Positions 1-12,108 are shown, counted from the stretch's first letter. The stretch: 64,000 nucleotides of DNA from Candidatus Bathyarchaeota archaeon (GCA_963726255.1 CAVSBL010000002.1:1472001-1536000); one strand, 5' to 3'. Translations and numbers: made by a program. The notes: generated by a model from the sequence alone, not told the origin.

Positions 1-2
1 AG

Positions 3-908
3 GCAGGCTACACGACTGGTGCTGCCTTCAGCTGGGATGCAACATTGAAGAGCACTCTCTGGCCTTTCCTTGCTTTAGCAATCTCAATGCTCTCAACCGT
101 TTTTGCTGGTGAGATCAAAAGCGTCAAGAAGAACCAGATGGTCGGCATACCAGCCAGTCTGGTATTATGTGGCGGTCTCTTCGTTGTAATGGCATACCTC
201 ATCGTCAGAACCGTTGGGTACGATTTTCTGGGTGCGGCAGGATACCTCTATTATGTTAACCCATCCGCGTACCCACTTCCAACAGCGCCTTGGTACAGCC
301 TTTTCGCAGCGTTAGTGAGCTCCAACATCGTTGTCACTTTTCTGATTTTGGTGAGTTTCGCAATTTGGTCGATTTACTGGGTTGCTGTATGTGCGATCTA
401 TTCGTCCCGAAGTATGCTCGCATGGTCCATTGACAGGCTAACTCCAAAATGGGTTGGAAACGTCAGCGAGAAATATAGGACACCCGTCAGTGCAATACTC
501 ATTTCAATGTTTGGCGGATGGATTTTTCTCCTAATCTATGCATACACGCCTTACCTGGTTACTCTAGTAGGAATGCTTGGACTGGCGATCACAATTCTGT
601 TTGTCTGCATCGCTGGACTGGTACTACCATACCGTAGGCGAGAAATTTTCGAAAAGTCGCCTGCTAACTACAGAATCGCCGGCATTCCCGCCATAAGTAT
701 CTTCAGCCTTGGAGGAATTATCTATCTACTCTATACAATCTATCTCTTCTTGATTGACAGCGTAGTCGCCGCAAACACGCCGAGCAACGAAATCGCAATT
801 GTAGGCTTCATCGTGAGCGGATTCATCTACTTCTACGCTGCACGCGCATACCAGAAGAGCAAGGGCATTGACGTAGACCTTGCATACAAAGAAGTCCCAG
901 TGGAGTAA
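3..908 (+). CDS. APC-family amino acid permease (5'-truncated by window edge)
   Basis: Frame is open from position 3. Many hydrophobic helices; motifs SRSMLAWSID, VSEKYRTP and C-terminal YKEVPVE match the two downstream paralogues. Confidence 0.88.
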   Translation, partial: AGYTTGAAFSWDATLKSTLWPFLALAISMLSTVFAGEIKSVKKNQMVGIPASLVLCGGLFVVMAYLIVRTVGYDFLGAAGYLYYVNPSAYPLPTAPWYSLFAALVSSNIVVTFLILVSFAIWSIYWVAVCAIYSSRSMLAWSIDRLTPKWVGNVSEKYRTPVSAILISMFGGWIFLLIYAYTPYLVTLVGMLGLAITILFVCIAGLVLPYRRREIFEKSPANYRIAGIPAISIFSLGGIIYLLYTIYLFLIDSVVAANTPSNEIAIVGFIVSGFIYFYAARAYQKSKGIDVDLAYKEVPVE

Positions 909-910
909 AC

Positions 911-933
911 CCTCACCCCTCTGGTTTTTTCCC
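911..933 (+). terminator. C-rich plus oligo-T archaeal terminator-like tract
   Basis: CCTCACCCCTCTGGTTTTTTCCC immediately after the permease stop codon. Confidence 0.45.
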
Positions 934-1036
934 GTTTGGTAGACATGAGCCATAAGACCGCATCCACGACACATGTCGTGAGCTGGGCAATTATGAAGTC
1001 CCGGCGAAGCCAAAGAACACGAAAGCGGCCATAGCA

Positions 1037-1639
1037 TTGCCGCCCGCAGCTCTGATCGCAATCCCTGCTCGGCGCGGCAAGGCTGCTCGGGCTAAGAAGG
1101 GGCAGCTTGTCAAAGTGATTAACACACATGGCACGCAAGTCGTCGACACATGGGCGTTCAACGCAGACGATTTGCCTGAGTTTATGTCAATGGAGCACAC
1201 GCGGCCCCACACAGGGCACATAATTCCGAAGGTTGGCGACATCATGTGTACGAACAAGCGTCGCCCGATTCTCACATTCATGGAGGATACGTCGCCTGGA
1301 ATCCACGACACTATCATCGCCGCATGTGACCGATACCGTTACAGGTTCCTAAACTTCGAGGGCTATCACGACAACTGCACAGACAACCTCCACGCCGCTA
1401 TGAGCGAACTCGGTCTCACCCCGCCTGAAACTCCGAGCCCCTTGAATCTGTGGATGAACATCCCGGTGGGCCAGGACGGCAATATTCAGTTTCTGCCGAC
1501 TGTGGCGAAGCCAGGGGACTACGTGGTTCTCCGGGCCGAGATGGATGTTGTGATGGCCTTCTCGGCTTGTCCCCAAGACATACTGCCGATAAATGGCCCC
1601 TCATGCAAACCGGTCGAGTGCCATTTTCAAGTGATATAG
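1037..1639 (+). CDS. DUF1989 / urea carboxylase-associated family protein
   Basis: Motifs GTQVVDTWAF, HDTIIAACD, HDNCTDNL, PLNLWMNIPV and SACPQD are typical of DUF1989. Confidence 0.88.
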   Translation: MPPAALIAIPARRGKAARAKKGQLVKVINTHGTQVVDTWAFNADDLPEFMSMEHTRPHTGHIIPKVGDIMCTNKRRPILTFMEDTSPGIHDTIIAACDRYRYRFLNFEGYHDNCTDNLHAAMSELGLTPPETPSPLNLWMNIPVGQDGNIQFLPTVAKPGDYVVLRAEMDVVMAFSACPQDILPINGPSCKPVECHFQVI

Positions 1640-1737
1640 CGAATGGATGGATCTAACCACCAAGAACAGTATCGGATTCTCTACGTGTCGGAAGTGACCT
1701 ACGTGCTACGCTGAACCGTGTTCTGAACGCTTAACTT

Positions 1738-3342
1738 CTATTCGACTGGGATTTCCCGGAACGTTAAGCTTACGTCGACTCCCTGTTTCTTCCTGTAAGC
1801 TTTCATCACGTAGAAGAGGATGAAGCCAACGACTATGAATCCCGCGACCATTGCGAGGGAAGTGGTGCTGTTCGCTCCAGCTCGTGGGTCTGTGATCATG
1901 ATGTAAATTGCCACAATGTTCGTTATGGCGTTGATCGCACCGAAGATCGAAATCACTGGGATACCAGCAACTTTCCAGTCCACTCCTGAGCGGTTAAAGA
2001 ACTCCTTCTGTCTGAACGGGAAGATCATGGCTGCAATAGACGCGAGTAAGAAGACGAAACCGATTCCAAGCGAACCTGAAAGTACCCCTAGCCAAGTGGT
2101 GAAGGCGATTCCTGCAAGAAAAAGCGCGCCGCCGATCCCTGAGAGAACTATCGTGTTGATTGGGGTGCGGTATCGCTCACTGACATGTGCGAAGACATCT
2201 GGAAGCATTCCGTCCATAGCCCATGCAAAGGAAGTTCTAGAGGTGAAGACGTAGACAGTTGCTGTAAGGACGAGGAACCAGCTGAACCAACCGAACAGTA
2301 TGAACGAGCTGAGAATCGCGTTGTCAGTGAGCAGAGCCGTGAAGAGGTTGTACCATGGAGACACTGGAATTGGCAGTGCGGATGGGTTATTGAACATCAG
2401 GTACGTCGCCGCCCCAAGGAAGTCGTAACCAAACACCCTCCCGCCCAAGAAGAGTAATAGAAAGAACAACACACCAGTCACGAGAACAGACCCAACCATT
2501 CCGAACAGTTGACTCTTCTTGACGCTCTTCACCTCCCCCGAGTAAGATGCGGAGGTCATGCAGAAACCGATCGCAAGCCAAGGCCAGACAAAGAAGAACA
2601 CGGTTTCCAACAATGAAAAGGGCGTTCCTGAACCGAATCCGTTTTGGACCGCTGTTTGAATAATCGCATGGTATGTGTCGTCCAAGTTTGAGTATGGCTT
2701 CGAAAAGGCGTTGAAGCGGGAAATGAAAGTTTCCTGGCTAGTTGTAGCGAGAAGCGCTATGACCACAATTGTGCTTGCCACAGCAATTATGAAAACGACC
2801 TTCTGGAAGTTGAAATAGTTTTTCATCCCAGAAGCCAACAGGATGCCGTAGAAAACAATGCTGATAAGTCCAATCATGAAGAATGCGTTCGGAGTTCCAG
2901 CCCACTGACTCATCGAGATTAGGCCTGGGCTGTTGGTCACGAAGCCGATGCCGGCTAGCATCGGCGCCACGCCTTGGAACCCAAGCATAGCCGCGTTCAG
3001 GCCGAGATAGAATAGCATCCAGACAAAGAAGTTCCAACTCATAACAAAACCTAGTGTCGGATGAATTATGCGCGTAATGTAGACGTAGTCTCCCCCTGAA
3101 CGTGGATATACTGAAGCCAACAATGCGTATGTGAGACCTTGAAAGAGAGCCACAATCGTCGTGATGACGATCGACAGCTCAAGGCTAGCGCCGGGGTAGG
3201 AGATCCAGTAGAGCACGATGAAGAGTGTGTACCCGATGCTGATCATGAACATGTTATAGGCGAGAACATCAAACCCCGAGACCTCTCGGACAAGGCCTGA
3301 GGCTTTCCTGACAAACGTTCTGGGTTCAGTCATATCTAACAT
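1738..3342 (-). CDS. APC-family amino acid permease
   Basis: FVRKASGLVREVS N-terminus, YPRSGGDYVY motif, about 12 TM segments. Confidence 0.9.
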   Translation of the reverse strand: MLDMTEPRTFVRKASGLVREVSGFDVLAYNMFMISIGYTLFIVLYWISYPGASLELSIVITTIVALFQGLTYALLASVYPRSGGDYVYITRIIHPTLGFVMSWNFFVWMLFYLGLNAAMLGFQGVAPMLAGIGFVTNSPGLISMSQWAGTPNAFFMIGLISIVFYGILLASGMKNYFNFQKVVFIIAVASTIVVIALLATTSQETFISRFNAFSKPYSNLDDTYHAIIQTAVQNGFGSGTPFSLLETVFFFVWPWLAIGFCMTSASYSGEVKSVKKSQLFGMVGSVLVTGVLFFLLLFLGGRVFGYDFLGAATYLMFNNPSALPIPVSPWYNLFTALLTDNAILSSFILFGWFSWFLVLTATVYVFTSRTSFAWAMDGMLPDVFAHVSERYRTPINTIVLSGIGGALFLAGIAFTTWLGVLSGSLGIGFVFLLASIAAMIFPFRQKEFFNRSGVDWKVAGIPVISIFGAINAITNIVAIYIMITDPRAGANSTTSLAMVAGFIVVGFILFYVMKAYRKKQGVDVSLTFREIPVE

Positions 3343-3421
3343 CTGCTCCGATCGCTCATGATTGAAAGTTCAATCGTATATAACATCGAGGGTGCACCTT
3401 CAGTTAGCGCTTCATTCCCAA

Positions 3422-5065
3422 CTACTCGACAGGTATCTCTTGGAATATCAGGTTCACGTCGACGCCTTGCCTCTTCCTGACATACTTCATGACGTAGAAG
3501 ATTATCACGCCTAGCACCAGGAATGCGCCCACTAATTCCTCTGATGTCGGACTGTTCGCGAAGGCTCTCCAGTCAAAGAGCATAATGTAGATCGCTACTC
3601 CGTTTGTTATCGCATTCAATAGACCGAGGATGCTGATGACAGGCACTCCCGCTATCTCCCAGTTAATTCCGGACTTCTTGTAGAAATCCCTCCGTCTGAA
3701 TGGAAAGATCATCGCAGCCACTGAAGCCAGGAACCAAACGAGTCCGATTCCCAGCGTCCCGGATAACACACCGAGCCAAGTCGTGTATGCGATGCCGGCA
3801 AGGAATATTACTGCGCCGACCGCGGAAAGTATGATTGTGTTGACAGGCGTTCTAAACTTCTCACTTACGTACGAGAAAGCATTGGGAAGCATCCCATCCA
3901 TCGCCCAGGCGAAGGATGTTCGAGTCGTGAAAAGGAAAGCTGCAACTGCCAGAACCAAGAACCAGCTAAACCAACCCACCAATATGAACGAACTCAACGC
4001 GACGTTGTCGGTGAGTAAAGCCGTCCAAAGGTTGTACCAAGGAGTGACAGGAATTAGAAGCGCCGCGGGGTCATTGAACTGCAGATAGCCCATTGCGCCA
4101 ATAAAATCGTATCCAAATACTCTGCCACCCAAGAACGCCAGCAGTATGAATAGGAAGCCCGTAATGATAGCTGAGCCGAGCATGCCGAAGATCTGGCTTT
4201 TCTTTACGCTCTTCACTTCTCCCGAGTACGACGCAGAGAGCATACAGTAACCTATCGCTAGCCAAGGCCAGACGAAGAAGAACATGGTTTCCAACAATGA
4301 AATTGGAGCGCCAGGAGTGAACCCCTCTGCAACAGCGGTCTGAATTGTTGCACTGTACGTGTCATCAACATGGGAATATGGTTTCGCAAGGGCGTTGAAA
4401 CGCGAAACGAATGTCTCGTGGCTTGTTGTTGCCAGTAGGACCATCATGACGATAGTGCTCGCCATCGCGATTACGAAGAGTACCTTCTGGAAGTTGAAAT
4501 AGTTCTTCATGCCAGAGATCAAGAGCAGAGCGTAGATGATTATCGCTGCCGTTCCAATCATGAAGTAGGCGTTCGGGGTCCCAGCCCACTGGCCCATTGA
4601 GATCAGGTTGGCGTCCCCCGTTATGAATCCAATCCCTCCCAGAGTGGGCGCAAGGCCTTGAAAACCAATCATACCAGACTGAAGGCCTACGTAGAATACC
4701 ATCCAAATCCAAAAGTTCCAGCTCATCACGAACCCAAGCGCTGGGTGGAGAATGCGCGTCATGTACACGTAGTCGCCACCCGAGCGTGGGTAGGCGGAGG
4801 CTAACAAAGCATACACGAGGCCTTGGATGATGCTGACAACAATTGTCAGGATAATAGACCATTCAAGGCTGGCTCCTGGGTAGAGTACCCAGTAGAAGAA
4901 CATGAAAAGGGCATAGCCCAAGCTGATGATGAACATGTTGTATGCGAGAACATCGACAGCAGACACTTCTCGGACGAGGCCAGAAGCGCGTCTCACAAAC
5001 GTTTTCCGTTCAGCCAAAAATCCATCCCCTGTTGTGTCCTTAACACTTGCCCAGGTTGTGACCAA
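3422..5065 (-). CDS. APC-family amino acid permease (tandem paralogue); start may be TTG at 5017
   Basis: Colinear with and highly similar to 1738..3342 (FVRRASGLVREVS, YPRSGGDYVY, EIPVE). Confidence 0.9.
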   Translation of the reverse strand: MVTTWASVKDTTGDGFLAERKTFVRRASGLVREVSAVDVLAYNMFIISLGYALFMFFYWVLYPGASLEWSIILTIVVSIIQGLVYALLASAYPRSGGDYVYMTRILHPALGFVMSWNFWIWMVFYVGLQSGMIGFQGLAPTLGGIGFITGDANLISMGQWAGTPNAYFMIGTAAIIIYALLLISGMKNYFNFQKVLFVIAMASTIVMMVLLATTSHETFVSRFNALAKPYSHVDDTYSATIQTAVAEGFTPGAPISLLETMFFFVWPWLAIGYCMLSASYSGEVKSVKKSQIFGMLGSAIITGFLFILLAFLGGRVFGYDFIGAMGYLQFNDPAALLIPVTPWYNLWTALLTDNVALSSFILVGWFSWFLVLAVAAFLFTTRTSFAWAMDGMLPNAFSYVSEKFRTPVNTIILSAVGAVIFLAGIAYTTWLGVLSGTLGIGLVWFLASVAAMIFPFRRRDFYKKSGINWEIAGVPVISILGLLNAITNGVAIYIMLFDWRAFANSPTSEELVGAFLVLGVIIFYVMKYVRKRQGVDVNLIFQEIPVE

Positions 5066-5614
5066 GAATCGGTTATATTACTTGTGTTAAGAGAGTATAT
5101 AACCAAAGTCCGGATTCACAGCGTTACTATTGGACAGCTGACAAAGGACTCAGCTGCAATCAGAATCATTTTCAGAACGCAAATTCGGAACGACCATTAG
5201 AGAGCTTGGGCGCGCCTAGAAAAGGAACCAATAAACTCGTTGAACTCGCAGTACGCATCGCACTGCTAATGGCGAGAAGGCACTCTTAAGGGGAGACCCA
5301 TTATGTCCTAGACCGGCAAGTCACAGATCACGATAACGCGTATGCCGCGGCGTCGAATGAAACTCGGTCATACGAGGAAGGTCAAGCTGGGCGTATTTGA
5401 AGGAGGTCCCTTCTTCAGAACCTGGTGCCGTGAACGTGGTGCACGGTATCCAGACAGCCGCGGTCGAGTGAGCCGGCAAGGAAATGAGGATTGGCCGTTT
5501 GTCTAGGTCTACAAGAAATCAGCCGCTGACCATTCCTTCACGAAAGAAACTGGGAGTAAGACATTAGAATTAGCTTTTTCAACTCGTTCGGTTAACTAGC
5601 CCTCCACGTTTGAG

Positions 5615-6385
5615 TTGAGATATGTGTCGACAGACAAGGCGAGCCTCTACGTCAATGAAGCGTTGAAACTAGTTCAGGAAGCGGAGAAGAGAAGCATCGA
5701 TCTTCGTGTCATGGGAGCGGTGGCTTTCAGAATTCATTGCCCCGAATTCATCAAGCTCATTGACGCAATGAACCGGCCACTGACCGATCTCGACTTCATA
5801 GGCTATAGGAAGCAAAGGTCGGACACCATTAAGATGTTCAAGGAGCTCGGGTACACGTTGGACAAGGAGATGCTAATTCTTGGTGAGCGCCTCAAGTTTC
5901 ACAGTCCTTCAAATGGCCCAGATATTGACGTTTTCTTAGATGAACTCCGGATGTCTCATACCCTTGTTTTCAAGGACCGTCTCAAACTGGATTTACCCAC
6001 TATTCCATTGGTCGATCTTCTGCTAGAGAAGATGCAGATAGTACAGATCAATGAGAAAGACATCAAGGACACGATACTTCTTCTACGAGAGCATGCGATT
6101 GGGAATGGTGAATCAGAGACAATCGACTCCCAGCACCTGTCGAAGCTGCTTTCAAACGATTGGGGATTCTACTACACTGTGACAACGAATCTGAAGAAAG
6201 TGATGGAATTCCTACCAGTTTACACCGCACTCTCAGAAGACGACCGGAAAGATGTTTCCTCGAAGGTCTCAGCACTCATCGAAAAGATAGAATCCGCACC
6301 GAAGAGCGCGAAGTGGAAGATGAGAGCGACTGTCGGCACGAAAAGAAAATGGTACGAGGATGTGGAAGAGACCCACATTGGTTGA
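5615..6385 (+). CDS. Nucleotidyltransferase-fold (Pol-beta superfamily) protein of unknown function
   Basis: hG-x-x-A motif (VMGAVA), R-x-x-T-DLD motif, third acidic strand DIDVF, C-terminal helical region (KDIKD, NDWGFYYT). Confidence 0.65.
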   Translation: MRYVSTDKASLYVNEALKLVQEAEKRSIDLRVMGAVAFRIHCPEFIKLIDAMNRPLTDLDFIGYRKQRSDTIKMFKELGYTLDKEMLILGERLKFHSPSNGPDIDVFLDELRMSHTLVFKDRLKLDLPTIPLVDLLLEKMQIVQINEKDIKDTILLLREHAIGNGESETIDSQHLSKLLSNDWGFYYTVTTNLKKVMEFLPVYTALSEDDRKDVSSKVSALIEKIESAPKSAKWKMRATVGTKRKWYEDVEETHIG

Positions 6386-6483
6386 CTGTATCGCTTCGGG
6401 TCTGATGAGATGAGAAATTCATGGGTTTTCACCAGCATTTGTTTGATGTATACCAGGTTTCCAGAGAACAAGAGTAAATTCAC

Positions 6484-7431
6484 ATGAAAAATGTCAGTTT
6501 CGGCATACTAACTCCTCAAATGTCACTTCAATTTGACCAGCTTAAGCGGATTTGGATTGAAGCAGAGGATTGCGGTTTTGAGTCTGCATGGATAGTTGAC
6601 CACTTCATCCCTTACGATTACCCTGATCGCTCCGTCACCGAGCCTATGCTTGAATGCTGGGTGACCTTGGCGGCATTGGCGCGAGAGACCGAGAAGATCA
6701 GGCTAGGCCCGCTTGTGTCGTGTAATTCGTATAGGCCCCCGCAATTACTCGCCAAGATGGCCGCGACTCTCGATTGCATAAGCGGAGGTAGGTTGAACTT
6801 CGCCATAGGAGCTGGATGGTTAAGGCTGGAGCACGAGGCGTACGGCTACGGTTTCCCAAAGACTCAGCTTAGAATAGAGAGGCTTGGAGAGGCGTTTGAG
6901 GTCATCAAGCGTATGTGGACTGAAGAGAAGGCGAGCTTCAATGGAAAATACTACACAATCACAGGCGCCGTGAGCTGCCCTAAACCCGTTCAGAAGCCTC
7001 ATCCGCCGTTTTACATCGGAGCCGAACATGAGAAGATCTTGAAATTCGCTGCAAGACACGCGGACGTCTGGAACTTTCCCTCAGACATCAACGCCTACTC
7101 GCCTGAGCAATACAAGGAACGCGTGAGTATCCTCGAAAATGAGTGCGATGCAATAGGACGCAACCCAGACACAATCAAGAGATCATGGCTAGGCATCGCA
7201 GTCTTAGGGAAGGACGAGAAGGAAGTCAATGAAAAGGTAGCATCGATTAAACCGAAACCACTAGCCAAGCAACAAGTAATGAGGGAGATCGTTGGGACAC
7301 CGGACACTTGTCTTCAAAGACTGGGAGATTACGTCGACCTAGGCGTCTCGGAGTTCCTGCTAATATTTCCAGAACCCTATAGGCCCGAAGTCCTTCATGA
7401 ATTCTCCAACGAAGTGATGGACAGATTCTGA
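6484..7431 (+). CDS. LLM-class (luciferase-like, probably F420-dependent) oxidoreductase
   Basis: WIVDHF, LAKMAATLDCISGGRLNFAIGAGW, PKPVQKPHPP and GTPD motifs. Confidence 0.9.
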   Translation: MKNVSFGILTPQMSLQFDQLKRIWIEAEDCGFESAWIVDHFIPYDYPDRSVTEPMLECWVTLAALARETEKIRLGPLVSCNSYRPPQLLAKMAATLDCISGGRLNFAIGAGWLRLEHEAYGYGFPKTQLRIERLGEAFEVIKRMWTEEKASFNGKYYTITGAVSCPKPVQKPHPPFYIGAEHEKILKFAARHADVWNFPSDINAYSPEQYKERVSILENECDAIGRNPDTIKRSWLGIAVLGKDEKEVNEKVASIKPKPLAKQQVMREIVGTPDTCLQRLGDYVDLGVSEFLLIFPEPYRPEVLHEFSNEVMDRF

Positions 7432-7457
7432 GACATGTGGACCAAGCCGATCTCAGG

Positions 7458-8408
7458 CTACCCGGACGTGAACTGGTAACTCTTCACCTTTTCATCCTCG
7501 AAGGTTATGAGTGCTCCCCTGAGTATCCCCTCGCCATATTCGCTTCCCGGGTTCAGACAGAGGGTCCGGCCTATCTTCCCTGTTCCTCTCGACTCATGTA
7601 TGTGCCCATGCAAGCCTAGAAGCGGTTGATATTTCTCCATTGCGGCCCTTACAGCTGTGCTTCCTACCGGTATCATGAGCATCTCACCGCCCGGCGACAC
7701 GACTGGTTTCAGGTCTTTGTCGAGTTTTGGCGCCGAGTCTAAGTTCGAGTCGTAGGGTGGGCAGTGAAGGTTGAAGATGCAGTTTTGCATATTGGTAACC
7801 TTTGATGCCATGTCTTCGATTTTCTTCGCCAACTCTTCCTCAGGGATGTCTCGGGGGCAGTTCCACGGCGTTATGTTCGTGTAACCAGTGCTAATCATTT
7901 CATGGGTGTCATCAATGGAAACAACCTTGCCCTCGGGGTTAATCACAAATTGGGATGCGTTGAGTGCCGTATCGATATCCATTCGGTCATCGTTGCCGGG
8001 CGTTATGATGCATTTGATTCCAGTTCCCTTCAACTTCTCCTCAGCCGTCTTGACCCAGTGTTCAACCCGCTGTCGCATTAAGTCAGAAAAGAGTCTGTCA
8101 ACCTCCGCACGATCAGCGTTGAGCTTAGCCATCCCTTCCTTCGTGGTTCTGAATGGGTAGTAGCCAGCGTACATGATGCTCTTCTCAAGCTGCTTCGCGT
8201 TATCCTCTCCTTTTGCGGTCTGCATTTTGCCCAGAAATTCGGCCTCGTAGCCCTGGGCAGTCTGAATCATGGGAATGATCATCTTGCCGGTAATGTCGCC
8301 ACCGCAGATAAGCACGCTTGCCTTGTAGAACTTCCCAGCGTTAATGAATTTCAAGAAGCATTGCTCGGAACCATGAAGGTCAGTTGTGTAAAACATTCTA
8401 GTCTGCAT
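7458..8408 (-). CDS. Calcineurin-like metallophosphoesterase
   Basis: Motifs DLH, GGD, GNDD, HCPP, GHIHE and NPGS. Confidence 0.85.
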   Translation of the reverse strand: MQTRMFYTTDLHGSEQCFLKFINAGKFYKASVLICGGDITGKMIIPMIQTAQGYEAEFLGKMQTAKGEDNAKQLEKSIMYAGYYPFRTTKEGMAKLNADRAEVDRLFSDLMRQRVEHWVKTAEEKLKGTGIKCIITPGNDDRMDIDTALNASQFVINPEGKVVSIDDTHEMISTGYTNITPWNCPRDIPEEELAKKIEDMASKVTNMQNCIFNLHCPPYDSNLDSAPKLDKDLKPVVSPGGEMLMIPVGSTAVRAAMEKYQPLLGLHGHIHESRGTGKIGRTLCLNPGSEYGEGILRGALITFEDEKVKSYQFTSG

Positions 8409-8531
8409 CGAAAGCTCCAGCTCTCCTTGTGTGAGAGTGATTCAATATTAAGGCGACGCTCCAAGATATAGGAATTCGGACCGACTGTTCAACCTCCGAA
8501 CGGCTGACAATGGTTAATACAATATAGACAA

Positions 8532-9571
8532 ATGCGATTGCAGGTACTAGTTATGAACTCCGTCACTTCGAAGTTGGAAAAAGGTAAGCCGCCTCATCCG
8601 GTGCGCGCAAGCTATCTCGAAGAATTGAAGCGTCTATGGGACGAAGAATGGGGAGCCCAAAGCGAGGTTGGAAAGCTCAGAGTTGTCATGGTTCACAAAC
8701 ACGGAGACGAGTTTCGTCCGGATATAATCGAGGATTTGGCATGGTACGGAGTCTCGGAGTTCCCGGACTACCAAAAAGCCGTCCAACAACACGACCACTT
8801 TGTTGACGTCCTGAAACAGGAAGGTGTCAGGGTTCACTATCTCAACCCGCCCTCACCGGCTCACGGGCCATATTCCCCTGCGAATCCCCGAATCTGGGCA
8901 ACCAGGGATCCGGGTGTCGTAATCAGGGGCGGGGCGATAATCGGGCGAATGGCGTTGCCTTGGCGGAAGAAGGATGAAGTGTTCTGGTCCCGGAGAGTCA
9001 TGCAGCTTGGCTGTCCGATCCTGCGGACCGTGACAGGCCATGGAACCTTCGAAGGTGGAAACGTTGTCTGGCTTGACCCCGAGCACGTTTGCATCGGGCA
9101 ATCGATTCGCACAAACTCTGGAGGCATATCGCAAGTTTCTGCGATTATGCAAGAAGTTGGAGGGGTCAAGGAAGTCAGAGTCGTGCCCATTCCTGGGTAT
9201 CTTGAGAATATCGAATGGCCAGCAGGAGGATTTGCACATCTCGACGTCGTTTTCGGGATGGCGGACGTAAATCTGGGAGTGATATACCCTCCAGGTGTTC
9301 CCTTCGACTTCATAGAGTACCTGAAGTACGAGAAGAAGATCCAGCTGATTGAAGCTCAACCGGAAGAAGTGCGTAGTGAGGGCTGCAACATAGTCGCATT
9401 GGCACCGCAAAGATCATCATGAATGAGAAGAACATCAAACTCAGGAAAGGCTTAGAGAAGGAGGGCGTGGACGTTATACCCGTGGACTTCTCAGAGATCT
9501 GCAAGTTCGGCGGCGCAGGGCACTGCGCTACAGGCCCACTCCTTCGTGACCCCGGGCCCATGATTGCATAG
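8532..9571 (+). CDS. Amidinotransferase-superfamily enzyme (arginine deiminase/dimethylargininase-like), single-base frameshift at about 9409
   Basis: SEVGKLRVVMVH, TRDP, FEGGN and HLD motifs. The C-terminus KIIMNE...FGGAGHCATGPLLRD, with the catalytic Cys, continues in another frame from 9410 to TAG at 9569-9571. Confidence 0.85.
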
Positions 9572-9771
9572 GCGGTTTGCTTTTTGCGTGAGCAGGAGGT
9601 CCGCACAATGTCCAGAATAAGACGGTAATTGAAGCAGTCTGCGAACCGATTGTGCCTCTGCCATTATCGTCACGCTGCGAGTTGTGTTTCCATTCGGTTT
9701 TCTTGGACAAGGATTATAATTCTGGCGGAGGCCACGTTCGCCAGAGGTTTCGCGCCAGGGGACCAATCGGT

Positions 9772-11739
9772 TTGCTAGAGAGCACCCCGATGAAACGATT
9801 CTACTTGGCCTCACCTTCGAGGTATGAGGACCAAGTAATCGAGGCCCTTGGTCAACTCGGAACAGTCCAGTTAATCACAGACTATACGGTCAACGGCTTC
9901 AAGAAAGTTGACACCGTTGAGAAGTGCGAAAAGTACGTGAAGCTCCAGCAGAGAATGAGCTCTGTCCTGTCAACTCTCCCACCCCAAAAAGGCACGAAGA
10001 AAGGCCTTGCGCGCTCGCTGAAGGAAAGCTTTGGCAAGCCAATGCAGAGGGAAGTTGAGGTCCCAGATGTCGGCCTAGAGCAGATCGAATCACACATTCT
10101 CGAGACCGAAGCTAGGTTAGATGATCGGCTTGCGAAGTTGGAGAAACTACGCACCGAGATGAAGGCGCTCAAGGCGCTAGATGAGAATCTCCTAATTCTT
10201 CAGAATCACGCCCTGAGAGCGGATGATCTGGGTGATTTTGAGAACATCTTCGTCAAAGCCGGTTTCATCAACAAAGCGCTTTCGCTGAAACTCGACAGGT
10301 ACGTCGAAGGAACCGATGTAAAGTTTTCGAAGTGGCCTGATAAACGTGAAGAGGATTTTGTAGTAATTCTCGGCCCGAATCGAGATAAGGCTCACATGGA
10401 GGAAACGCTGACACGGCTCAACTTTGCGGGATTAACCATACCAAAAGGAATCAAGCCGGATCCAACCCAGGCTATAGAAGAGAATCGGGCGTCTGAGGAT
10501 AAGCTCCGGCATGATTTAGATGGCCTCGAAAGAGACGTGAGAAGAATTTGTGAAGAATTTCAGAATAAGGCGGCGGGATTTGAACCTTTAGTGCGTAGGG
10601 CCCTTGCTATAGAAGGCGCTAGGTCGGCCTTCGGCCGAACCGAGACGTTGAGCTTGGTGCACGGCTGGGTCCCCGCGGAACAGGAAGAACCGCTCAGAAG
10701 TGCAGTTACGGAGTCGACGAATGGAGCGACCATTCTGAAGTTCGATAACCCTGCCCCCGGCGAAAACCCGCCCGTGCGAATTAACAATAGAGGGATTGCA
10801 GGGTCTTTTGAACTATTTACGAAGCTGAGGGGAACGCCGCAATACAATGAAATTGATCCCACCCTGATCGTTACCGTTCTTTTCACCATCATGTACGGAA
10901 TGATGTTTGGAGACATCGGCCAAGGAGCCCTGCTTTTTGCGATGGGCTTAATCTTCAGCCGCTTGCAACGGAGCTTCTTGGGAATTCCAGCGCGAGCGAT
11001 GAGAAAGTTAGGGGGAATCCTAGCGACCTGCGGCATATCAGCCATATTCTTCGGAACACTCTACGGCGAGTTTTTCCTATCCGAAGCTTTCCACCCCATC
11101 TTCGTAAACCCAATCCAAGGCCAAACCACCATGATCATAGTGGCTCTATTGTTCGGGGTCGGACAACTATCCGTTGGATTGGTCCTCAAGATTGTAAACC
11201 TGCTTCGGAATAAGGCAATGATTGAAGCTGCGTTTGGGGGAGTGAGACTTCTTTACTATGTCACTGGCGTTATGTTGGCTGTGAAGTACGCCGCAACGAT
11301 GTCTTTCACGGTCTTCACGGATAACTTGGGGCTCCTGGTTCTGGCGCTCACATGCCTCCTACTTGTGTTGCTCGCCCCAACCATTGAAGGCGTCTTGAAG
11401 CATGAATTCAAGATGGGTGAAGGGGTAATGAAGGGTGTCTCGGAATTTATTGAGACGTTCCTGTCGTACATGACAAACTCGATTTCTTATGTGCGATTAG
11501 CCGCGTTCGCGATCGCTCATTCGGCTCTCGGTATAGCAGCCGTCATCTTAGGAGCCTCGATGGGTGTACTGCCAGGTTTCATTGTTATGAATTTCCTGGC
11601 CATGACTATCGAAGCGCTGGGGGTTTTCATTCAATGCATGAGGTTAACATATTATGAGTTCTTCACTAAGTTCTATTCTGGCACGGGAGTACCGTATCGC
11701 CCATTCTCGCTTCCGAGAGTCTTTGGAACCGTTAAATAG
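9772..11739 (+). CDS. atpI: A/V-type ATP synthase subunit I (a); start reassigned to TTG 9772
   Basis: GWVP, PQYNEIDPT, GMMFGDIGQG, SYVRLAA (essential Arg) and RLTYYEFFTKFY motifs. Confidence 0.93.
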   Translation: MLESTPMKRFYLASPSRYEDQVIEALGQLGTVQLITDYTVNGFKKVDTVEKCEKYVKLQQRMSSVLSTLPPQKGTKKGLARSLKESFGKPMQREVEVPDVGLEQIESHILETEARLDDRLAKLEKLRTEMKALKALDENLLILQNHALRADDLGDFENIFVKAGFINKALSLKLDRYVEGTDVKFSKWPDKREEDFVVILGPNRDKAHMEETLTRLNFAGLTIPKGIKPDPTQAIEENRASEDKLRHDLDGLERDVRRICEEFQNKAAGFEPLVRRALAIEGARSAFGRTETLSLVHGWVPAEQEEPLRSAVTESTNGATILKFDNPAPGENPPVRINNRGIAGSFELFTKLRGTPQYNEIDPTLIVTVLFTIMYGMMFGDIGQGALLFAMGLIFSRLQRSFLGIPARAMRKLGGILATCGISAIFFGTLYGEFFLSEAFHPIFVNPIQGQTTMIIVALLFGVGQLSVGLVLKIVNLLRNKAMIEAAFGGVRLLYYVTGVMLAVKYAATMSFTVFTDNLGLLVLALTCLLLVLLAPTIEGVLKHEFKMGEGVMKGVSEFIETFLSYMTNSISYVRLAAFAIAHSALGIAAVILGASMGVLPGFIVMNFLAMTIEALGVFIQCMRLTYYEFFTKFYSGTGVPYRPFSLPRVFGTVK

Positions 11740-11790
11740 TGAGGCCCCAAATCCTTGGCTGTGGTTTCATTGAGCCGCGAAAGAAAATCG

Positions 11791-12108
11791 ATGTGGAAGA
11801 GGAGACTGCTTCTGCTCACACCCTTTCTCGCCGCGCTGTTCTTGTTCACTTTTTCCGTCACCGGAACGTTCGCACAAGGAACTACAACCAACCAAACATC
11901 GAACTTCGACACCGTAGGCGCTGGCTTGGCGGTCGGTCTGGCAGGACTTGGTGCAGGTTTGGCTATCTACGGGTCTACCTCATCTGGTCTGGCAGCGATG
12001 GTCGAAAGACCCGAGCTTACGACATGGGTTCTGGTTTTTGCAGGTCTGGGGGAAGGAATCGCTATCTACGGCTTGGTTGTTGCAATCCTTATTCTGGGTA
12101 GACACTAG
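11791..12108 (+). CDS. atpK: A-type ATP synthase subunit K (c, proteolipid) with N-terminal leader
   Basis: GLAVGLAGLGAG helix, ERPE loop, GEGIAIYG with the ion-binding Glu. Confidence 0.92.
   Translation: MWKRRLLLLTPFLAALFLFTFSVTGTFAQGTTTNQTSNFDTVGAGLAVGLAGLGAGLAIYGSTSSGLAAMVERPELTTWVLVFAGLGEGIAIYGLVVAILILGRH

Follow-up and report, generated by a model that had tools for sequence, protein, structure and literature searches.

A conserved triad of permease, metallophosphoesterase and nucleotidyltransferase-like protein, and its candidate guanidino-compound cargo, in a Bathyarchaeia genome

Introduction

Control of nitrogen uptake and assimilation by nucleotidylylation is known from amtB-glnK acting with GlnD or GlnE. 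Here we describe a region at the start of a 64,000-nucleotide window (positions 1472001-1536000 of contig CAVSBL010000002.1, below called C2) of a Bathyarchaeia genome of 2.42 Mb in five contigs (Candidatus Bathyarchaeota archaeon, GCA_963726255.1; G000 in our comparisons). The window is that whole stretch, and its positions are counted from its first letter. At its start, three APC permease genes, a gene for a nucleotidyltransferase (NTase)-like protein and a metallophosphoesterase gene stand together with genes for a DUF1989 protein, an F420-dependent luciferase-like monooxygenase (LLM) and an ADI/DDAH-like enzyme. An original prediction, made from the window's sequence, had read these eight genes as one system for the uptake and catabolism of a guanidino or modified amino compound. 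Our analysis shifts the attention from the eight-gene set to a conserved and unexplained triad of permease, phosphoesterase and NTase. Like amtB-glnK and its partners, the triad encodes a membrane transporter for a nitrogen compound together with a Pol-beta-type function that would transfer nucleotidyl groups and a second function that would remove them, both being predicted for the triad. It differs from that system in having no PII protein, in having a separate metallophosphoesterase and not an HD domain as the presumed eraser, and in having one enzyme pair per permease paralogue.

The closest structural relatives of the NTase are the small-molecule nucleotidyltransferases ANT(2'')-Ia and LnuA and the toxin-type nucleotidyltransferases MenT, AbiEii and JHP933, with which it shares the Pol-beta branch, a C-terminal helical domain (Z 10.3-12.1) and the G...DxD motif followed by a third Asp. 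However, it is only 10-16% identical to them, and its fixed partners are a metallophosphoesterase and a permease rather than an antitoxin or a resistance context.

Three catabolic systems invite comparison with the other genes of the locus. The arginine (arcABCD) and agmatine deiminase pathways combine, as the locus does, an APC-type transporter, a Cys-dependent guanidino hydrolase, a carbamoyltransferase and an ATP-yielding carbamate kinase. In the locus, however, the deiminase homologue is short (296 residues), the carbamoyltransferase is of the N-acetylornithine type and the kinase is encoded 660 kb away, while the creatininase, the DUF1989 protein and the two F420 LLMs have no counterpart in those pathways. 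In common with the locus, the guanidine carboxylase pathway with CgdAB (UAAP1/UAAP2) has the DUF1989 fold and the cysteines of its zinc site, and hydrolysis of a C-N bond in a guanidino-type group is plausible for both. It has two subunits where the locus has one, which scores far under the cut-offs of both equivalogs, and a search of the genome gave no urea or guanidine carboxylase above the cut-off. The aerobic creatinine pathway consists of creatininase, creatinase and sarcosine oxidase. The locus resembles it in having, beside an uptake system, a creatininase that scores above its equivalog cut-off; it differs in that neither creatinase nor sarcosine oxidase was seen, in the partners found instead (DUF1989, carbamoyltransferase, ADI-like enzyme and F420 LLMs), and in belonging to an anaerobic archaeon.

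Results and Discussion

The triad and its distribution

The region is one of about nine paralogous triad loci in this genome, each joined to different C-N-cleaving catabolic enzymes, and of this architecture we are confident. In the window the triad consists of three permeases, one NTase and one phosphoesterase, and the remaining genes are locus-specific cargo. The first permease, perm0 (3..908, plus strand; PF00324, 33 bits), is represented by its 3' part, being truncated by the start of the window; the complete gene encodes 535 residues and starts about 700 nucleotides upstream. It is followed on the minus strand by permA (1738..3342; 534 residues, about 11 hydrophobic segments; PF13520, 79.7 bits) and permB (3422..5065; 547 residues; PF13520, 83.5 bits), tandem paralogues that are 70% identical to each other and 41-42% identical to perm0. 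The gene of the NTase-like protein (5615..6385, plus strand; 256 residues), identified by its fold model and invariant residues, diverges from permB across a 549-nucleotide spacer. The third member is a metallophosphoesterase (7458..8408, minus strand; 316 residues) with the five motifs of its superfamily and a PF00149 score of 20.8 bits (cut-off 21.5). Permeases of the triad have 10-12 hydrophobic segments, and the NTase and the phosphoesterase have none and are soluble.

The two enzyme families are widespread among relatives: of 61 related genomes searched, 47 contain the NTase family and 53 the phosphoesterase family. In this genome there are 14 NTase-family and 13 phosphoesterase matches, often at adjacent coordinates. 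On contig C2, where genes were counted by tblastn and by clustering of open reading frames (ORFs) in ten chosen regions around the matches, there are 12 genes for the NTase, 11 for the permease and 9 for the phosphoesterase, one of the last being split in two. All three families occur together at nine places on C2, at about 820, 918, 1471-1480 (the window), 1546, 1892, 1901, 2129, 2331 and 2340 kb. The neighbours of the other triads vary widely. They include an enolase-superfamily enzyme with an alpha/beta hydrolase; a CN-hydrolase, M20 and S58 peptidases and a class III aminotransferase; a polysaccharide deacetylase and an adenine-deaminase-like amidohydrolase; and M24 and M28 peptidases, a class V aminotransferase, LLMs and ABC transporters.

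Beyond these relatives, the NTase alignment matched at least 590 stretches in species-representative genomes, 570 of them encoding a relative, and we examined the best 80 loci. These span Bathyarchaeia, Heimdall-, Hermod-, Thor- and Promethearchaeota, Chloroflexota, Actinomycetota, Alphaproteobacteria and other Proteobacteria, Methylomirabilota, Planctomycetota and Bacillota. Of these loci, 70 have the phosphoesterase, 54 the permease and 53 both. Counted per gene, 75 of 88 NTase genes have a phosphoesterase within 5 kb and 62 have a permease, with 33 triads co-directional; four more loci, scored as lacking the permease, contain a divergent one with a variant tail. The triad travels together from Asgard archaea to Proteobacteria, with about a dozen NTase copies in sediment Bathyarchaeia. 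A natural fusion of NTase and phosphoesterase (P0121, 580 residues) is the sole convincing one among the longer NTase forms.

These neighbourhoods bear directly on the original prediction. Were all eight genes a single dedicated pathway, nucleotidylation of the incoming guanidino or amino compound by the NTase and cleavage of the phosphoester by the phosphoesterase would both be obligatory steps of catabolism. The genes are indeed contiguous, the close relatives G021, L120 and L106 preserve their linkage, and two small-molecule O-nucleotidyltransferases, ANT(2'') (Z 11.9) and LnuA (Z 10.4), are among the nearest folds of the NTase. Against this, the same NTase-phosphoesterase pair stands beside unrelated enzyme sets at eight other places in the genome, which removes the ground for nucleotidylation and phosphoester cleavage as steps specific to one pathway. 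The proposed gene-neighbourhood comparison for the NTase (5615) and the phosphoesterase (7458) went the same way, since among the best 80 loci DUF1989 is found at one, an LLM at five and the ADI-like gene at none. Moreover, in a metagenome locus (L115) creatininase, carbamoyltransferase and DUF1989 are retained next to a different paralogue of the triad, and in the NTase it is the presumed acceptor-binding domain that varies least among paralogues. We therefore regard a single eight-gene pathway as improbable. What survives of the prediction is the uptake and degradation of a guanidino or nitrogen-rich compound, which gains from the creatininase, carbamoyltransferase and second LLM found upstream of the window; the eight genes as one conserved pathway do not survive.

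Our literature search found no paper describing the triad (supplementary files lay outside the search), and this trio of permease, phosphoesterase and NTase is undescribed. A cultured carrier is available in the haloarchaeon Halobellus limi, whose megaplasmid NZ_CP031312.1 bears a triad (L147, 5926-9462) whose neighbours are the genes of an IclR regulator and of alcohol and aldehyde dehydrogenases. Its NTase, annotated as 'hypothetical protein', is 31% identical to ours. This organism opens the question to experiment and is a possible host for it. Whatever the action of the enzyme pair, it is part of organic-nitrogen uptake by abundant uncultured heterotrophs of sediment and soil.

Some individual triads deserve mention. 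A Hermodarchaeota contig (L047, 2157-8774) carries an Asgard triad in which a divergent APC-like permease of 526 residues, with the tail ...NIDLDAIYTSLSPE, lies two genes from the phosphoesterase. It adjoins MttB-family methyltransferase, corrinoid-protein and URO-D-like genes, and these neighbours suggest quaternary-amine demethylation. Two NTases have N-terminal extensions (P0302, 396 residues; P0342, 436 residues); visual inspection suggests a winged-helix regulator for one extension and, for the other, a small regulatory domain whose linker is rich in proline. In the triad at 918 kb the split phosphoesterase (C2:918027-918970) consists of ORFs of 113 and 201 residues, the result of either a frameshift or a mistake in assembly. 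The triad of C2:2128-2132 kb recurs with identical scores on contigs C1 (12.9 kb) and C5 (11.8 kb), which look like assembly duplicates and may add to the contamination estimate of 9.3%.

The nucleotidyltransferase-like protein

The NTase has no match in Pfam or NCBIfam. PF14907 (NTP_transf_5) gives 13.3 bits, below its gathering cut-off of 31.2. Sequence and profile searches against the PDB returned chance-level matches only. A fold predicted from the single sequence was unusable (pLDDT, the predicted local distance difference test, 42.4), and it was an AlphaFold2 model built from a 73-sequence alignment (pLDDT 92.7) that displayed a Pol-beta nucleotidyltransferase fold. With VIA-align, this model matched MenT1 with Z 12.1 (root-mean-square deviation 3.5 over 168 residues), ANT(2'') with 11.9, JHP933 and LnuA with 10.4 and TglT with 10.3; a further NTase was matched with Z 11.5, and MenT4 was matched as well. 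Foldseek found no PDB match at E ≤0.001 and ranked the same NTases at the top. In the 73 sequences a Gly motif and three acidic residues (G34, D58, D60 and D105) are invariant, and together with the Pol-beta alignments they indicate that the label 'NTase' is right.

The family is large. A profile search of 1.84 billion cluster representatives (50% identity) returned 2981 members at E ≤0.001 and 998 at E ≤1e-30. No curated model covers it, 'hypothetical protein' is the only name it bears, and PF14907 itself is mentioned once in the literature, as 'uncharacterized'. When matches at E up to 1 are allowed, 49 of the 73 members touch PF14907 (best 2.4e-5), all under its cut-off.

The structural matches raise the question of whether the NTase is a toxin of the MenT/AbiEii kind, with the phosphoesterase as an enzymatic antitoxin; the many copies would then be toxin-antitoxin or defence modules whose position near permeases is incidental. 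The toxin MenT1 is indeed the top structural match, the matches to TglT and MenT4 point the same way, PF08843 (AbiEii) is touched by 10 of the 73 sequences at E up to 1 (best 0.0013), and there are many copies per genome. Yet no member of the 73 attains the cut-off of a toxin family, an identity of 43-52% across the archaeal-bacterial divide would be unusual among conflict genes, and the linkage to one permease subfamily and to catabolic genes is tight and wide, with both partners at 53 of the 80 loci and all three genes in the same direction in 33 cases. Judged by family models, conservation and gene neighbourhood, a toxin-antitoxin module is very improbable.

A possible role for the enzyme pair

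The phosphoesterase retains all motifs of its superfamily (D10xH12, G37D38, G138NDD141, H215 and G268HIH271). Across 58 sequences, D10, H12, G138, N139, D140, D141, H215, H269 and H271 are invariant, and G37, D38 and G268 nearly so; its neighbours in the ESM Atlas are Metallophos clusters. Within the genome, paralogues of the NTase are 38-50% identical and those of the phosphoesterase 37-58%, compared with just 19-29% for the permeases. In the NTase, conservation is highest in the C-terminal helical domain (residues 121-200), where the mean per column is 0.57-0.83, against 0.39-0.62 in the catalytic core. In structural relatives this domain holds the acceptor. Since the enzymes are more conserved than the permeases and this domain is the best conserved part of the NTase, we infer that the pair sees a constant target rather than the varying cargo.

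With this in mind, we tentatively suggest that the NTase and the phosphoesterase form a pair that adds and removes a nucleotide on a target common to all triads, and not on the cargo substrate; this remains a doubtful proposition. The most likely common target would be the cognate permease or a factor bound to it. According to this suggestion, the nucleotide would be added by the NTase and removed by the phosphoesterase, and uptake would thereby be switched on and off.

A conspicuous feature of the permeases is their C-terminal tail. About 69 of 73 permeases, archaeal and bacterial, end in the motif ...G(I/V)D(I/V)xLAFKE(I/V)PPE (counted by eye), and variants of it occur in Asgard and Planctomycetota loci. 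In the window the motif is encoded at 3425-3490 (minus strand), 1741-1806 (minus) and 840-905 (plus), the last being the terminus of perm0, ...GIDVDLAYKEVPVE. A predicted complex of the NTase, the phosphoesterase and the last 48 residues of permB scored 0.08 against a mark of 0.32 and is uninformative on binding. Elsewhere on the contig, a permease at C2:1065208-1066743 has the tail motif yet no NTase or phosphoesterase nearby. A shared operator was sought upstream of the permeases as well, and the idea was dropped: no 8- to 10-mer is common to more than 3 of the 11 permease genes and only TATA-like boxes were seen; permA has such a box of its own.

The same conservation can be read in another way. 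The pair might process a chemical handle common to all permease substrates, for example that of phosphate- or nucleotide-esterified amines such as phospho-amino alcohols or phosphagens, which would make the triad a unit for uptake and unmasking and not a regulatory switch. Triads always stand beside small-amine catabolism, with creatininase here, MttB and corrinoid proteins in Asgard archaea, dehydrogenases in Halobellus, and glutamine-synthetase-like, GFA and SHMT genes in a proteobacterial locus (L100); the catalytic site of the phosphoesterase is complete; and a conserved acceptor domain suits a common handle as well as a common protein target. However, both enzymes are cytoplasmic, making a phosphodiester with an NTase only to cleave one with a neighbouring esterase has no obvious net catabolic role, and no recurrent kinase or phosphate-related gene was seen among the loci examined. 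We consider a common substrate handle unlikely.

The cargo genes

In the window the cargo comprises the DUF1989 protein, the LLM and the ADI-like enzyme, and it runs on upstream of the window, in C2:1468214-1471190, with a carbamoyltransferase, a creatininase and a second F420 LLM. The creatininase homologue (C2:1469342-1470154) scores 275 bits with TIGR04448, above the equivalog cut-off of 235. The carbamoyltransferase (C2:1468214-1469272) is of the N-acetylornithine type (NF003384, 313.6 bits; cut-off 288) and fails the ornithine (TIGR00658, 258.5 against 280.85) and putrescine (TIGR04384, 225.7 against 500) models. The second LLM belongs to a G6PDH-like family (TIGR03557, 249 bits; cut-off 210). 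That in the window (6484..7431, plus strand) scores 173.9 bits with PF00296 and 239.3 with TIGR03560 (cut-off 231.4). A carbamate kinase scoring above its cut-off is encoded on the same contig (C2:2142864-2143790). It lies between two carbamoyltransferase paralogues (L146, C2:2141709-2144891; 56% and 45% identity), about 10 kb from a triad, and adjoins amidohydrolase, cysteine-synthase-like and threonine-synthase-like genes. Farther upstream of the locus than the carbamoyltransferase are PrpD-like and citryl-CoA lyase/succinyl-CoA ligase-like genes.

To see which cargo genes stay together we compared 31 metagenome loci around close DUF1989 relatives. The creatininase/carbamoyltransferase/LLM block accompanies DUF1989 in four metagenome contigs. 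Two of these, L120 (98% identity) and L106 (86-91%), keep the full gene order. L115 keeps carbamoyltransferase (92%), creatininase (85%) and DUF1989 (82%), and the triad paralogue beside them is the different one mentioned above (permease 33%, phosphoesterase 46%, NTase 36% identity). L111 has the order creatininase-DUF1989-permease-LLM-LLM. High-GC, apparently bacterial DUF1989 contigs share none of these neighbours. In the proteobacterial locus L100, a DUF1989 protein of 57% identity stands beside a triad, with the glutamine-synthetase-like, GFA and SHMT genes.

The DUF1989 protein (1037..1639, plus strand; 200 residues) scores 175.7 bits with PF09347 (cut-off 27). The original prediction had pointed to the carboxyguanidine deiminase subunits of this family. 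The protein is neither CgdA nor CgdB by the equivalog models (TIGR03424, 115.4 against a cut-off of 284.7; TIGR03425, 66.5 against 205.95), and tblastn finds a single DUF1989 gene in the genome and no adjacent pair of paralogues. Other claims of the prediction fared better: its window contains no urea or guanidine carboxylase, and the genome search for urea carboxylase that it called for gave no match above the cut-off in 2.42 Mb. The best match to TIGR02712 (457 against 1304 bits) covers model positions 3-442 only, which is the biotin-carboxylase part. The closest solved relative of the DUF1989 protein is the uncharacterised structure 3ORU (E 1.6e-68), of which it is a single-subunit orthologue. 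It aligns with the three zinc cysteines of trimethylamine N-oxide demethylase (PMC12560246), and its zinc-site cysteines are conserved.

Homologues of the DUF1989 protein in Alphaproteobacteria and other bacteria are 70-80% identical. The type is rare here, being found in only 2 of 401 Bathyarchaeia genomes (E ≤1e-40) and in 5 of the 61 relatives (E ≤0.001), and from these sequence comparisons the gene was probably acquired from outside. In an archaeal-type metagenome contig (L108, 4522-6107) a DUF1989 gene lies behind CofD- and CofC-like genes of F420 biosynthesis. In a sister species, a triad locus (L013, G011:C3:334000-353999) has two distant DUF1989 paralogues (24-26% identity), with three amidohydrolases, an aldehyde:ferredoxin oxidoreductase and a class III aminotransferase as further neighbours.

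The ADI/DDAH-like enzyme (8532..9422, plus strand; 296 residues) belongs to the guanidino-group-modifying superfamily (PF02274, 66.8 bits; cut-off 22.8). Its orthologues are 50-56% identical in five other genomes of the genus and 92% in the near-identical relative G021. Residues D126, H236, D238 and C285 are invariant in eight orthologues; this Asp, His-x-Asp and C-terminal Cys set we take to be the functional residues of the superfamily. In four of seven other contexts an orthologue lies within 6 kb of a triad-type permease. It is directly behind a creatininase-like gene in one context and directly before a carbamoyltransferase-like gene in another (G055).

Taken together, these genes probably serve the uptake and degradation of some guanidino, ureido or cyclic-amidine compound; that the compound is specifically creatinine or creatine is a possibility that we put forward with reserve. 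The compound would be imported by the permeases, and its ring would be opened by the creatininase, converting creatinine to creatine. The guanidino group would then be converted to a ureido group and ammonia by the DUF1989 protein, by analogy with carboxyguanidine deiminase, by the ADI-like Cys-His-Asp hydrolase, or by both. The resulting ureido compound would be phosphorolysed by the carbamoyltransferase to carbamoyl phosphate, from which the carbamate kinase encoded elsewhere would make ATP, in a deiminase-type fermentation like that of the arginine and agmatine deiminase pathways. The LLMs would perform some F420-linked redox step. The cargo thus hints at a possible anaerobic route for creatinine-type compounds with substrate-level phosphorylation, and possibly at a first function for 3ORU-type DUF1989 proteins. 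We found nothing on creatininase in Bathyarchaeota in the literature.

One may also ask whether the cargo is simply a variant arginine or agmatine deiminase pathway, made of a deiminase, a catabolic carbamoyltransferase, carbamate kinase and an APC antiporter, with the creatininase and DUF1989 genes as unrelated neighbours. An ADI-superfamily enzyme with the invariant Cys, His and Asp set is present, the locus has a carbamoyltransferase and the genome a carbamate kinase, and the gene order in G055 would suit such a pathway. Nevertheless, the ADI-like protein scores 67.7 bits with the ArcA model TIGR01078, against a cut-off of 489.1, and is about 110 residues shorter than a typical ADI (the model has 408 positions). 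The carbamoyltransferase, moreover, falls under the ornithine and putrescine cut-offs, and the ADI-like gene is missing from L115 and L111, both of which retain creatininase and DUF1989 and the former the carbamoyltransferase as well. A variant of this kind seems rather unlikely to us.

Weighing the explanation

Our explanation has three layers, the triad architecture, the cargo chemistry and the role of the enzyme pair, and as a whole we give it a probability of about one half. A much more specific and more speculative version can be formulated, and we think it has little chance of being right in all its parts. According to this version, each permease would come with a dedicated writer and a dedicated eraser, the NTase and the phosphoesterase, which would reversibly nucleotidylylate either the transporter or a factor docked to its conserved tail and so gate the uptake of nitrogen compounds. 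The principle would be common to Archaea and Bacteria and duplicated for each permease. At this locus it would govern a hitherto undescribed ATP-yielding fermentation of creatinine or creatine in which the single-subunit DUF1989 protein would act as a creatine deiminase and the N-acetylornithine-type carbamoyltransferase would release carbamoyl phosphate.

Several observations weigh against the three-layer explanation. The analysis is computational throughout. As to the architecture, 4 of the 12 NTase genes on C2 have neither partner within 5 kb, and 10 of the 80 loci have no phosphoesterase and about 20 no recognisable permease, for which contig ends are partly responsible. As to the switch, the permease tail has no invariant hydroxyl residue able to accept a nucleotide. 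Distance matrices of the three families over 60 triads do correlate (r 0.62-0.75, Mantel p ≤0.001), in a comparison that species relatedness confounds and could alone explain. Within the seven triads of this genome the correlation is not significant for NTase and phosphoesterase (r 0.14, p 0.33) or for NTase and permease (r 0.29, p 0.09); phosphoesterase and permease (r 0.63, p 0.03) are the sole significant pair. As to the cargo chemistry, L111 and L115 have no ADI-like gene, and bacterial homologues of the DUF1989 protein (60-82% identical) have other neighbours, such as SDR, amidase and aminotransferase genes; a consistent partner was looked for in the bacterial contigs and none was found. 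The creatininase family includes enzymes that do not act on creatinine, the upstream carbamoyltransferase could be biosynthetic instead, and no creatinase or sarcosine enzyme was identified at the locus.

Other features of the region

ORF and domain calls confirm the eight contiguous genes of the original prediction, which fill positions 3-9422; its domain assignments were upheld by Pfam, NCBIfam and the fold model, and there is, as it had said, no housekeeping gene among the eight. No riboswitch was seen in positions 1-10000 of the window, since an Rfam scan gave zero matches there at E ≤0.1. Right after the ADI-like gene, an A-type (V-type) ATPase operon begins at 9652 with the gene of subunit I (9652-11739, plus strand; NF004430, 216.7 bits, under the equivalog cut-off), behind which lies an ORF of 120 residues with no family match (11739-12101). 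No RNA run is among the listed sequencing runs that contain the locus; it was found in 20 DNA runs, from sediment, wetland, peat and soil metagenomes.

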